Assembly (NCBI GenBank): GCA_949292985.1
Contig: CASFBF010000001.1
Coordinates: 23,031 to 87,030, forward strand
Source of the DNA: an uncultured Bacillota bacterium
Lineage (GTDB): Bacteria > Bacillota > Clostridia > Christensenellales > UBA1242
Length of the DNA: 64,000 bases
Direction: 5' to 3'
The notes beneath the pieces are model-generated. The model was given only the letters and a program-made list of their open reading frames with translations. It ran no database searches and was not told the DNA's origin. Every line of letters starts with the position of its first letter. Positions within the stretch are counted from its first letter, which is position 1. Below, one piece after another: positions 25,105-52,400 of the stretch. A program made the translations under genes and the position numbers.

Positions 25105-25773
25105 ATGTCTTTTTACATCAACAATACAAATCCTAGCAGACCGGGCCCTATTGTAGGTAATCCGCTTAACGGGATTTGTGAAAAAATCTTGATTGAGACA
25201 ACGAAAGTTTTTGATGCTTGTGTTTCACAAAGCACTGAAACGGGAATTGTTCTGCCTGTAACCGATTTGACACCTGCCAGCCCTGCAACGCCTCTTACAT
25301 TTGTTTCGGCAGTTAATGCACCAAACGAACCAGTTGTTATTTCTGACCTTGTTGTTGACAGATTGGAAAGTTGCCCTAACTACGCAAATGTAAGCGCAAC
25401 AGTTACAATACCAGTTGTTGTAACTTATCGTGATAACAATGGCGTGCTGGGAAGTGGTAGATCAACCATTACAGTTAGCAAAAACGTTGTTCTCTTTGTT
25501 CCTCAGCCTTCTGTCACTCCTGTCAATATTTCTGCAAGCGCTGTATTTTCTAGTGAGATTGGTTCTTATACTGCCGAAAACACATTTACAGTTACTGGTT
25601 GTTTGCAGATTATAATCAGAGTGACGGCAGTTGTGGATGTTCTTGTGCCATCATATGGCTATCCAGTAATCCCGCCATGCCATTCTGCTCCGGCTGCAAG
25701 TTCGTGCCCTGGATTATTTGAAATGCCACTTTATCCAACGGCATCAGGACCTGTTGTTCCACCAAGAGTTTAA
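25105..25773 (+). CDS. hypothetical beta-rich protein with Pro/Cys-rich ends (possible spore coat/surface component)
   Basis: Strong AGGAGG RBS and a clean 222-aa frame rich in V/T/S/P. A terminator hairpin lies at about 25787-25821. No family was recognised. Confidence 0.6.
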   Translation: MSFYINNTNPSRPGPIVGNPLNGICEKILIETTKVFDACVSQSTETGIVLPVTDLTPASPATPLTFVSAVNAPNEPVVISDLVVDRLESCPNYANVSATVTIPVVVTYRDNNGVLGSGRSTITVSKNVVLFVPQPSVTPVNISASAVFSSEIGSYTAENTFTVTGCLQIIIRVTAVVDVLVPSYGYPVIPPCHSAPAASSCPGLFEMPLYPTASGPVVPPRV

Positions 25774-48893: not shown

Positions 48894-48942
48894 AGCACAC
48901 CTCTACATAACTATTTTAACTTAAAAAACAAAAAAAGTAAAG

Positions 48943-48977
48943 AAAAAAGCCTAAATTTTCTTAATTTAGGCTTTTTT
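48943..48977 (-). terminator. intrinsic terminator of the Cys-rich micro-protein gene
   Basis: GCCTAAATT-ttctt-AATTTAGGC flanked by A6 and T6 runs. Confidence 0.8.
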
Positions 48978-48983
48978 CTTATT

Positions 48984-49175
48984 TTAGCATTTGTTCATAC
49001 AGTTTGAACCACCGCAGCAACCACAAAGTAAGAGAATCAATAATAATGTGCAGATATCAATTCCACAACCGTTATTGCCACAGCCACAGCATTGCAAAAG
49101 CATGAGAAGGATTAAAATTGAGCAGCAGTCGCATCCGCAACCATTTCCGCCGCCGAAGCCTCCAAAAAAGTTCAT
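48984..49175 (-). CDS. tandem Gly/Cys-rich tiny membrane protein (YjcZ-like style), 63 aa
   Basis: MNFFGGFGGGNGCGCDCCSILILLMLLQCCGCGNNGCGIDICTLLLILLLCGCCGGSNCMNKC has 14 Cys. An AGGAGG RBS lies 6 nt before the ATG, and the gene has its own terminator. Confidence 0.75.
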   Translation of the reverse strand: MNFFGGFGGGNGCGCDCCSILILLMLLQCCGCGNNGCGIDICTLLLILLLCGCCGGSNCMNKC

Positions 49176-49340
49176 ATGTACCTCCTAATTGTTTATCCTT
49201 TTGTGTGAGTGTGCTTACACATTAACATACTATTAAAATTTGCAAAATTTTGTTACAATATATTGAATTTTTTATTTTTATTATTACATAGATTTATTGC
49301 TTATGCGCAAAATATTTTAATTAAATAAGTCCAAAATTGA

Positions 49341-49369
49341 TTGACATTAAATTATATTTATATTAAAAT
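49341..49369 (+). promoter_or_regulatory. sigmaA-type promoter TTGACA-17-TAAAAT upstream of the giant surface protein gene
   Basis: The hexamers and spacing were read directly. Confidence 0.5.
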
Positions 49370-49405
49370 AAACTGTTACGAAATCATCTTTACTGAGGGG
49401 TTATT

Positions 49406-52400
49406 ATGATAAAGAATAAAATTATTAAAAAGAACAATCTATATAAAGGAGTTACTCTTGCTTTCGCAGGCATTTTGGCAACATCATTTTTCCCAGTAAA
49501 TATCATTCAGTCTAATGCCGATTGTTTGTTGGGCGGTGTTGGCAGTGAGGCAATAATTTTAAATAATGCACAGTCAGTTGCAAATAAGGGGTCTACATAT
49601 CAAATTAGAGCCGCTTATTTTGGTTCTGATTCACAAATTCCTGTCGGGTTGGACAATTATGGCGCAGAATATCTTGTTTCATATGATGGTGCCAACACCA
49701 TAGATGCGATCACATCTAATGTTACCGTTACTTATAAATCCTCAGGGCAGGAAGTTGAAATTGCAAAAGCGCAAGACAGCACTATTATAAGTGCGCTTTC
49801 AATTGATTCAGCAAGCGCAGTTTACGGAACAGTTGAACTTAAAAATGCAGGAGAATATGTTGTAACATATGAGTTTGATGTTACAGTTAATGGCGAAGTT
49901 AAATCATTTGCATCGGAGTACATTGTTTATAGTGAAATTACTACTGCTTATTTCGAGTTTAATGATAACGACGAAAAAATTGTTCCAAATGTTTATGATG
50001 TAACATTACAAGGTGATACTTTAAAAAATATTGAACTTCCTCTTCCAACTTTGTTCGATAGAAATGAAGAAGAGGTAAGTGGAGTTTCTTATGTGCTTAA
50101 CACAGATTCTGTGCCAAGCGAGGGTGAGTTTGTTAAAATTTCTGTTTCAGGTGGTGAAAAAGCAGTTGTTGTTGAGCAGAATGAAACAGGTTACTATATA
50201 GATTCAAAATACTTTAACCCTAATGACGAAAACTTCTTTGCTGGTTATGGTAACTATACAATCAGTTATGATTATTATTTAGCAGGTCAGTTTATTACTT
50301 CAATAAAGAAATCTTTCACTGTTTCTCAAAATTATTATAAAAATTATGAACTTGCTTTAACTCAAAATTCTTCGCTTTCTTCCGCTGTTACTGGCGTAGG
50401 GGTAACTTTGCCTACTATTTCTGGACAAACTGGTGAAGATTCTACACCTGCAAAGGAGAGTGTTGGTATAAGTTATACTATTGAAGCATATAGAAGAGAC
50501 AGCAATAATTCTTATTCAGAAACAAAAGCAGGAAGTATTGTAGACGGAGTGTTTACTCCTTGGGCTAACGGTTCATATAGAATTGTTTATACCGCCAAAG
50601 ATTTCTATGGAAATACAAAAACATTGGAATTCAGAATTGACGGAGTTACTGATAGTAAAGCACCAACAGTTTATATGTATGATGCTTCTCAAAAATTATC
50701 AGAAGATGAAGATGGAAACAAAATTTATCCTGACGCATCTACCGCTCTTAAATCTAAAACTTCTGTTGGCAATGTGATTATTTATGCTATAAGTGCACTA
50801 GATAATGTTTCGTCTTTGGACAATATTTCGCTTACCAGAGTAATTAAAAATTCTTCAAGAGAAATAACAATTGATAACCAACATAATGATAAGAATTTAA
50901 TTTTTGACTATAATTGGTCAACATTCCTATCAAACAATAATTACATAAGAGAAAAACTTGAAGACTTAGATATTGATACATCTTCTCAACAAGAAGTTGA
51001 AACTTGGTTAAAAAATAACAATTTCTTAATAGTTTCAAATAAAGTAGAAGATAAGGATAAAGAAGGTTACGCATATTTAGATATTACTGTAAGCGGAACA
51101 AACATTTTACCTGGTTCTTCATCTGGGACTTCTTACACAGTACTTTATTATGCAAAAGATGAAGCAGAAAACGAAAGCACTGAATTGTCATATTCTATTT
51201 CAATAGTTAGCGGTACAGGGCTTGAAGATGATGTTCCACCTGAAATCACTTTTGTAACTAACCTTAAAAATTCATATAGAGCAAATTCTATTATTTCGTT
51301 TGAAGCACCAACTGCTACTGATGATAACGATACAAGAATGGACGTTGTTACAGAATATTTCTATACTGGCGCAAATGATACCGTTTATGATTCGATCATT
51401 CTTGATGATGAAAATTACAAAATCGATCTTTCAGAAATCAATAACGCAATTTATTCAGAAGATGTACCTACAATGGTAACAATTAAAGTTTCAGCAAAAG
51501 ATGATTATGGCAATGTTGGTACTTGGACAAAAGAAATTGCAATAGCCGATGTTCAAGATACAAAAGCACCAAAAATTATTTTAGAAAAATATAACACTCA
51601 AAATGATCAACCAATTCAGCAAAATTCCGAAATTATTCTTCCTACAATTGTGTTAAGCGATGATAATGTTAAATATATCAACTCTGAAGTATTTGTAAAC
51701 AGAGTGGAATACGTTGAAAATAGTGAGGGGGTTAAAACAAAAGTTGAAACACCTATCACAGTTGTTGGGAAAACAGAAGTTAAAGACGTTCTTTCTCAAA
51801 GATATACTTTGGAAGCAGGCAAAGTAATTGCCTCATATGCTGGTGTTTATCAAGTTAAGGTTGTTATTACTGATGCTGGCAACAATCAAATAACCACTTT
51901 CTATAACTTTGAAGTTATTGGTTCCGGGGTTATTGAGGATCCTGTTATTACTGGCCTTCCAGCAGTTATCGGTGATGAAGGTAAAGCCGAAGTTGGAACG
52001 GCGATTGATTTAGGAACACCTTCTGTTGCTTACAAACTTTCAGGTGATCAGTATGATATATTTGGTGTAAGCAATGATGATTCTAATTCTGCTTTCGATT
52101 ATAATATAAAAGTAATCGGTGACGCTCCTTCTTCTTACAAATTTAATGAAAACGAAGAAAACACTTTTACCGCTTATGAGCCTGGAATATATAGATTGCA
52201 ATATACTGTTAACGTAAGTGTATTTGATACATCATTATTTGAAAAAAATACAACCAATACGGCAGTTATCGAGAAAAGTACTGATAACAAGGTTACAGCA
52301 TTTTCAGATGGAAATTTTGTGATGGTTTCAAGCACAACTAAAACTGTTAAGTATGCAATTAAAACTGACTCTCAATATTTGATTTATGACCTTAGTGAAA

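Follow-up and report, generated by a model that had tools for sequence, protein, structure and literature searches.

A two-unit Gly/Cys-rich micro-protein of small-genome gut Clostridia is a candidate late-sporulation component of the spore envelope

The question raised by this locus is what role a protein of 63 residues, 14 of them cysteine, might play in an uncultured clostridial bacterium. The gene lies on the minus strand of a 64,000-nucleotide stretch of contig CASFBF010000001.1 (the window; G000:C1:23031-87030 in our numbering, and the source of all coordinates given here without a contig) and begins with ATG. Its product, MNFFGGFGGGNGCGCDCCSILILLMLLQCCGCGNNGCGIDICTLLLILLLCGCCGGSNCMNKC, contains 14 Cys, 14 Gly and 11 Leu residues; Leu, Ile and Met make up about 30% of the chain, and there are three charged residues, with one Lys and no Arg. 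On balance, the evidence described below makes it probable that this is a micro-protein of the spore envelope produced late in sporulation, a hydrophobic hairpin that would be transcribed by sigma-K RNA polymerase and cross-linked through its cysteines.

Comparison of orthologues showed that the open reading frame is a real gene under purifying selection. The sense frame was open in all 32 of the distinct orthologous coding sequences, compared with 13 of 32 for the best antisense frame, so that the sense frame is the conserved one and the opposite-strand frame, which the original prediction had named as a possible refutation, is not. In the same set, single-nucleotide codon differences numbered 1491, 463 and 7579 at codon positions 1, 2 and 3, respectively, and synonymous differences greatly exceeded non-synonymous ones (7195 vs 2338). 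The signals from which the gene had been judged genuine were also found: AGGAGG is present, although with a spacer of 5 nt rather than the claimed 6 nt, and the gene has a strong intrinsic terminator of its own, for which reason we consider it to be monocistronic (Table 1). Across the genus, which consists of uncultured gut Clostridia with genomes of 0.7-1.3 Mb, the gene was found in single copy in 35 of 36 genomes (E 1e-11 to 1e-26), the only genome without it being an assembly that is 75% complete. The paralogue count in the window's own assembly (897 kb in 11 contigs, 99% complete) was likewise one. A word-indexed search gave nine relatives of the same design, and a profile of these nine, run with HMMER against 1.84 billion representative proteins, recovered 45 clusters at E<=1e-3, all of 59-120 aa and with the architecture of the micro-protein. 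The presence of a 63-codon single-copy gene in essentially every species of a genus with genomes of about 0.9 Mb argues for an important role.

The upstream region suggested when the gene might be expressed. As the sigma-K consensus we used a -35 element AC, a spacer of 16-17 nt and a -10 element CATAnnnTA. The window gene has AC-17-AATAGTATG, which agrees at AC, the spacing, ATA and T, but has A where the consensus has C and G where it has A. In 21 members of the genus the upstream region had a common order, consisting of xxACA, about 15 nt, (T/A)AATAnnnTG, an almost invariant (T/A)TAATGTG, a variable small hairpin and AGGAGG. To compare the family with the genome as a whole, a relaxed pattern (AC-N16/17-[CA]ATAnnnT[AG] within 150 nt upstream) was scored against a background of 258 intergenic upstream regions of the genome; it was present in 31 of 40 distinct family members, compared with 12 of 258 background regions (4.7%). 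The strict form, CATAnnnTA, occurred in five members (L038, L051, L054, L058 and L063) and in a paralogue in L053, and once among the 258 background regions. Relatives in other families kept both blocks, with perfect forms such as AC-16-CATATTATA, CATAAACTA, CATAGGATA and CATAAGATA, and the members that carry the promoter came from about nine separate lineages, in which the remaining spacer sequence has diverged completely. The motif is therefore conserved across lineages; that sigma-K uses it, and where transcription would start, we infer from its form.

The same type of promoter was found in front of the two collagen-like genes of this genome, and in front of four of the five in other genomes of the genus, again with a small hairpin after it. 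The bclA gene of Bacillus thuringiensis is read from a promoter of the form CAC-N16-CATATGTTA and is no longer transcribed in a sigK mutant (PMC4750369). The two collagen-like genes lie outside the window, at G000:C2:21392-22696 (+) and G000:C10:~126703-127659 (-), and encode GPT-repeat proteins of the BclA type with Cys/Asn-rich N-termini (MFNLFNNRCCCSNNC.. and MYNIFCNLKNNCRCNRC..). Their promoters read AC-16/17-CATAnnnTG, and that of the C2 gene is followed by a small hairpin; the collagen-like genes of other genus genomes are similar. The proteins carry an N-terminal F-N-(F/L)-F with a Cys/Asn-rich module; their heads resemble that of the micro-protein, although this motif is not specific. 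A further gene outside the window (G000:C8:52306-52878, minus strand), which encodes a protein of 191 aa rich in Asn and Cys (MNFLNNCNNRCNCQNN..), has a promoter, GTAACA-N..-AATAGTATG-TAAT, that matches that of the micro-protein gene almost base for base. We had considered it as a conserved calibrator for the promoter but rejected it, since it was found only in the closest relative (G007) and so evolves fast.

The block TG(T/A)TAATGTG that follows the -10-like element could be a site for a regulator, the first stretch to be transcribed or an alternative -10 element of the extended type. No other intergenic region of the genome contains the block, and so it was discarded as a regulon marker. 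The extended -10 option underlies the alternative that survives best, which we nevertheless think unlikely: that the gene encodes a small membrane protein of growing cells, a Cys-rich hairpin buffering metal or redox state much as a metallothionein bound to the membrane or a CYSTM protein of eukaryotes might, and that the gene is read from an extended -10 (TGnTAATGT) by the housekeeping sigma factor, with a growing-cell transcription start that would fall downstream of TGTTAATGT. The block is indeed the best-conserved upstream element in the genus, and keeps T-12, A-11 and T-7 of a -10 hexamer together with the upstream TG, but it is limited to the genus and its family, whereas AC-N16/17-xATAnnnT(A/G) is common to the relatives in other lineages. 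There was no -35 element at a constant sigma-A distance, a consensus scan gave no sigma-70-type site at this place, and an extended -10 would start transcription inside the leader hairpin, which begins in the region that would then be left untranscribed. Retention of a core gene in a 0.9-Mb genome would suit a vegetative function, and metal-thiolate proteins typically have CxC and CC motifs; however, the Pfam models for metallothionein and CYSTM gave no match at E<=10 with the window protein or its relatives.

The leader hairpin itself, at the predicted 5' end of the mRNA, was found at the same place in relatives but with different stems. An arm-swap folding comparison gave it weak support (-6.5 kcal/mol with own arms vs -5.2 kcal/mol with swapped arms; Wilcoxon p 0.02). 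RNAalifold, given the 5' leaders aligned with MAFFT, returned no consensus structure, because the loops vary in length, and an ungapped 7-nt complementarity test did not discriminate between own arms (5.8/7) and foreign arms (5.5/7).

The protein had been described as two repeats of one design, each consisting of a head rich in Gly and Cys, a short Leu/Ile helix and a cluster of Cys residues, and this description was borne out. When profiles of the first and second halves of 66 family members were compared, hhalign gave a probability of 97.7% (E 2.5e-12) and aligned GCGCDCCSILILLMLLQCCGCG to GCGIDICTLLLILLLCGCCGGS; the unit can be written as G-x-G-x-D-x-C-(S/T), eight or nine Leu/Ile and x-x-C-G-C-G. 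The micro-protein is thus an internal duplication. The two-unit profile and a single-unit family profile were then used to search a sample of the class comprising about 400 genomes from 216 genera. Full-length matches to the two-unit profile were obtained in all seven sampled genomes of the window's own family (f1), with scattered matches elsewhere in the sample, and the same search also recovered single-unit peptides of 36-48 aa, often two or three in tandem, such as MPENRGCGGFGFGDDCCWIIILILLICCCCGGNRGGCC (from gut Clostridia, and belonging to no curated family). The two-unit family and these clostridial peptides were related by hhalign with a probability of 96% (E 4.1e-9). Because the two halves are homologous and related in this way to the single-unit peptides, the micro-protein appears to have arisen by tandem duplication and fusion of a unit that is common in gut Clostridia. 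Single-unit matches were present in 117 of 400 class genomes (67 of 216 genera) but in none of the seven from the window's own family, where the fused form therefore appears to replace the single-unit genes. In relatives belonging to another family (f39), the linker of the two-unit protein still resembles a second N-terminus (..LFNNGDNGCGCD..).

The single-unit peptides share with the window protein the design of the unit (a Gly/Cys head, a hydrophobic 9-11-mer and a CCxCG tail) and the same sigma-K-type promoter, and likewise have no curated family. The window protein differs from them in having two units in one chain, a conserved MNFF start, a Gln after the first helix and D-x-C-(S/T) ahead of each helix, and its gene is single-copy whereas the single-unit genes occur in tandem pairs. 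Two such pairs (L058 and L064, in genomes G310 and G336) adjoin mutL, in one family of Clostridia. The gene also illustrates an evolutionary course for a family of this kind, the fusion of tandem copies. What is new here is the fused two-unit form as a single-copy core gene of a minimal-genome genus, the fusion, and a promoter type and 5' hairpin held in common with collagen-like spore-surface genes.

If the gene is expressed during sporulation, the organism should have the means to sporulate, and a link of this kind had been proposed in the original prediction. The 897-kb genome encodes Spo0A, SpoIVA, GPR and SpoVAC/EB, together with six sigma factors whose best matches were SigA, SigE, SigG, SigF, SigH and SigK (the last at 273.7 bits against a cut-off of 252). 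It also has a SpoVM-like open reading frame and a YabP-like gene with sigma-E-type boxes. As the gene set of a spore former it is very small and atypical, yet the regulatory cascade (Spo0A and SigH/F/E/G/K) is full. The proposed link thus gained support from the complete cascade, from the sigma-K-type promoter on the gene and its relatives, and from the listing of Bacillus subtilis yjcZ in the sigma-K regulon (PMC517825). The phyletic pattern was consistent with it: SpoIVA was found in all 22 genomes with a two-unit-profile match, compared with 301 of 399 in the sample, and in 106 of the 117 genomes with a single-unit match, compared with 195 of 282 others (odds ratio 4.3, p 3e-6, uncorrected for phylogeny).

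Searches of protein family libraries were then considered. Pfam and NCBIfam gave no meaningful match for the micro-protein, 46 relatives or the single-unit relatives, no PDB chain was matched in a profile search with the micro-protein, and the family is absent from curated libraries and had no description in the literature searched. The resemblance that had been pointed out to the YjcZ-like tiny-membrane proteins did not extend to membership of that family. The models for YjcZ, a sporulation protein family of Bacillaceae (TIGR01732, 'tiny_TM_bacill', and PF09680), gave no match even at E<=10 for the window protein, the 46 relatives or the single-unit relatives; a six-frame search of the whole genome with TIGR01732 likewise gave no matches, the B. 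subtilis control being positive. When compared with YjcZ profile to profile, the two-unit family gave an hhalign probability of 2.6% and the single-unit family one of 32%. Of 301 genomes sampled from the phylum, only five matched TIGR01732, all of 2.6-5.6 Mb and with up to 12 copies each. Both kinds of protein are tiny and run from a head rich in Gly and Cys through a very hydrophobic helix to a short tail that contains Cys, but YjcZ has a single long helix after a Gly/Tyr/Cys head (GGFALLVVLFILLIIVGA, in which 11 positions were invariant among 16 aligned sequences), whereas the micro-protein has two Leu/Ile stretches of eight or nine residues bracketed by Cys clusters. The relaxed promoter pattern was present in 6 of 19 retrieved YjcZ genes. 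Since HMM matches were absent and the profile-profile probabilities low, the likeness to YjcZ is therefore one of design and, probably, of regulation, not of demonstrable homology.

Two other groups of proteins offer analogies. CotY/CotZ of Bacillus and CdeC/CdeM of Clostridioides difficile are late mother-cell, sigma-K-controlled Cys-rich proteins that cross-link the outermost layers of the spore. These proteins, with ExsY, are soluble and self-assembling and have 150-400 aa, compared with 63 aa and about 30% Leu/Ile/Met for the micro-protein; there is no sequence similarity between them, and a spore location for the micro-protein would rest on analogy. ExsY in particular is a late mother-cell, sigma-K-controlled, Cys-rich protein that cross-links the outermost spore layers (PMC4750369). 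The eukaryotic CYSTM proteins are similar by analogy in being small, with a Cys-rich hydrophobic segment after a Gly/Pro/Asn-rich head, and thiol chemistry at the membrane interface has been proposed for them (PMC2804304), as we propose it here; they are tail-anchored and have a single module, whereas the micro-protein is bacterial and has two. Yeast CYSTM members are reported to be palmitoylated (PMC10840359). The only public name among the relatives is 'chorion class high-cysteine HCB protein 13', given automatically to one protein from a metagenome-assembled genome (MBP3344989.1). Homology to insect (silk-moth) chorion proteins was rejected, as none of the 46 relatives scanned had a Pfam chorion match, and we take the name to be a compositional artefact of automatic naming.

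AlphaFold2 predicted two helices, at residues 17-30 and 41-55, with low confidence (pLDDT 53, pTM 0.35), which suggests, tentatively, a hairpin of two short hydrophobic helices with Cys clusters at both ends of each. No signal peptide or lipobox was detected in the micro-protein. The N-terminal MNFF was considered as a specific targeting signal but could not be established as one, since cytosolic proteins of the genome, SepF and SecA-like proteins among them, have similar M-x-x-(L/F)-F starts.

Taking these results together, a role in the spore envelope could come about as follows. In the mother cell, sigma-K RNA polymerase would transcribe the gene from AC (49253-49252)-N17-AATAGTATG, giving a short monocistronic mRNA that would start at or beside the 5' hairpin (probably a stabilising element), carry the perfect AGGAGG and end at the gene's own terminator. 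The product would be the fused tandem duplicate, each unit offering a Gly/Cys/Asn head, D-x-C-(S/T), eight or nine Leu/Ile and a Cys cluster, and the two Leu/Ile stretches with their flanking Cys may form a hairpin of two helices of 14-15 residues. This hairpin would be buried either in the outer membrane of the forespore or in a hydrophobic layer at the base of the spore envelope, and the four Cys clusters at the helix ends would fasten the protein to the matrix of the coat or exosporium through disulfide or metal-thiolate bridges, in a matrix that would also hold the co-regulated Cys-rich collagen-like proteins of the BclA type. If this is correct, the family would add a new, very simple structural element to the spores that carry many gut anaerobes from host to host, and the public chorion label would need correcting. 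The micro-protein would also link a widespread and uncatalogued family of Cys-rich micro-peptides of gut Clostridia with the late mother-cell programme and with collagen-like spore-surface proteins. Tiny sporulation proteins are largely missed by annotation, and this one, with its single Lys and no Arg, is also invisible to tryptic proteomics.

Several observations weigh against a sigma-K-dependent envelope protein. The -10-like element of the genus, AATAnnnTG, departs from CATAnnnTA at two positions, one clade within the genus (L006, L010, L022, L024 and L030) has GTA in place of ATA and misses the pattern, and TGwTAATGTG, the block best conserved upstream, has a second possible reading as a sigma-A extended -10. 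YabG (PF05582), DpaA (TIGR02853) and alpha/beta SASP (PF00269) were not matched in the genome, and because of this the sporulation programme must be regarded as atypical. Eleven of the 117 genomes with a single-unit match had no SpoIVA match, some of these assemblies being incomplete and some of the single-unit matches weak. The pure Leu/Ile stretches are of eight or nine residues and the AlphaFold2 helices of 14-15, which is short for a membrane span, at a pLDDT of 53. Finally, the location in a membrane or envelope and the Cys cross-linking chemistry are suggested by analogy with other systems.

A more specific and quite unlikely version of the envelope role would make the micro-protein the thiol-rich hydrophobic anchor layer of a minimal exosporium. 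Here the hairpin of helices would be seated in the outer membrane of the forespore or a lipid-like basal layer, and its four Cys clusters would act as a disulfide or metal-thiolate hub tying down the collagen-like BclA-type filaments, whose promoter and Cys/Asn-rich N-termini are similar to those of the micro-protein; in a strict anaerobe the cross-links would form only on exposure to oxygen outside the gut, hardening the spore as it leaves. In effect, endospores would have a solution of the hydrophobin kind, with a unit of 20 residues as its building block.

The promoter evidence would apply in full to another product made under sigma-K, a membrane-active peptide that inserts in the mother-cell membrane and brings about holin-like permeabilisation or lysis at the end of sporulation. 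Lysis of the mother cell is a sigma-K-stage event, and two short hydrophobic helices without a signal peptide would be compatible with such an activity. However, holins and lytic peptides usually have charged C-termini and few Cys residues, whereas this protein has 14 Cys and three charged residues, and no lysin gene is adjacent; the strict single copy and strong purifying selection fit a structural role at least equally well, and we regard lytic activity as very unlikely.

A precursor of a ribosomally synthesised and post-translationally modified peptide (with the Cys residues as modification substrates) or other bacteriocin, or a type I toxin whose hydrophobic helices kill cells, would likewise be small and Cys-rich, and the tandem arrays of two or three copies in which the single-unit relatives often occur recall precursor genes, but such readings, among them the peptide precursor originally suggested, can hardly be right given the lack of a maturase, transporter or immunity gene beside the micro-protein gene or the relatives' arrays (the neighbours being mutL, housekeeping genes and bPH_2), the lack of any division into leader and core, a genomic context that is not conserved beyond the genus, an antisense frame that is not conserved, Rfam matches that were only terminator-like noise, and a universal single copy in a reduced genome, unlike accessory toxin or bacteriocin loci.

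This leaves the late-sporulation envelope protein as the reading we favour, and the features of its locus are listed in Table 1.

Table 1. Positions of the micro-protein gene, its signals and repeat units, and two neighbouring features in the window
Feature	Position	Strand	Basis or remark
Coding sequence of the 63-aa Gly/Cys/Leu-rich micro-protein, stop codon included	48984..49175	-	Open reading frame, purifying selection and orthologues
Ribosome-binding site AGGAGG, spacer to ATG 5 nt	49181..49186	-	Kept in the genus members examined
Intrinsic terminator hairpin, 18 pairs and T-run, directly after the stop codon	48940..48980	-	Terminator-like, strong
-35-like element GTAACA	49251..49256	-	AC at 49253-49252 is 17 nt upstream of the -10-like element
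-10-like element AATAGTATG, sigma-K type (CATAnnnTA)	49226..49234	-	2 mismatches to consensus
Nearly invariant block TG(T/A)TAATGTG	49218..49227	-	Between the -10-like element and the leader hairpin
Small hairpin (TGTG..CACA / GTGT-AAGC-ACAC), predicted mRNA 5' end	49202..49221	-	Folding comparison
Repeat unit 1, residues 12-33, GCGCDCCSILILLMLLQCCGCG	49077..49142	-	hhalign of halves; AlphaFold2 helix 17-30
Repeat unit 2, residues 36-57, GCGIDICTLLLILLLCGCCGGS	49005..49070	-	hhalign of halves; AlphaFold2 helix 41-55
bPH_2 (bacterial PH domain) protein, 132 aa, no membrane helices	48495-48893	-	Always follows the micro-protein gene within the genus
Promoter of the giant surface-protein gene, sigma-A-type TTGACA-17-TAAAAT	49341-49369

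The micro-protein gene is flanked on one side by genes for the bPH_2 protein, rluD, lspA and sepF, and on the other by the gene for a giant surface protein (1359 aa) and then rplU. As had been noted from the window, no modification enzymes are adjacent, and neither a maturase, a transporter nor a lysin gene was found near the micro-protein gene or beside the arrays of its relatives. The surface-protein gene is divergent, and the 230-bp region between the two genes (49176-49405) is as originally described, but the control region is shared only in the physical sense, since the surface-protein gene has a sigma-A-type promoter of its own; co-regulation of the two was rejected because their promoters are separate. 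The bPH_2 protein was similarly set aside as a functional partner, its pairing with the micro-protein gene being kept within the genus only and not in other genera, and its gene having its own weak sigma-A-like site. A search of positions 48900-49420 against Rfam gave sub-threshold matches on the terminator only.

Two further genes of the genome were noted. Outside the window, at G000:C11:220009-220206 (+), lies a gene for an unannotated-looking Cys-rich micro-protein of 65 aa, MKNCYTPGCYYNMPCHCPPPSFPQQCCNSPCCNNNMMGGCGYLNIAIPIGLLIFAGGFLLGQKCN, with a hydrophobic C-terminal tail; it has its own terminator, and the sigma-K-type motif is absent upstream. Within the window, at 25105-25773 (+; G000:C1:48135-48803), is a gene for a 222-aa protein (MSFYINNTNPSRPGPIVGNPLNGICEKILIE..) with no Pfam match. 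The sequence AC-17-CATATTATA, located 30 nt before its start, is the one place in the window where the strict sigma-K consensus occurs with sensible spacing, and the protein is a candidate for an unknown component of the spore coat.

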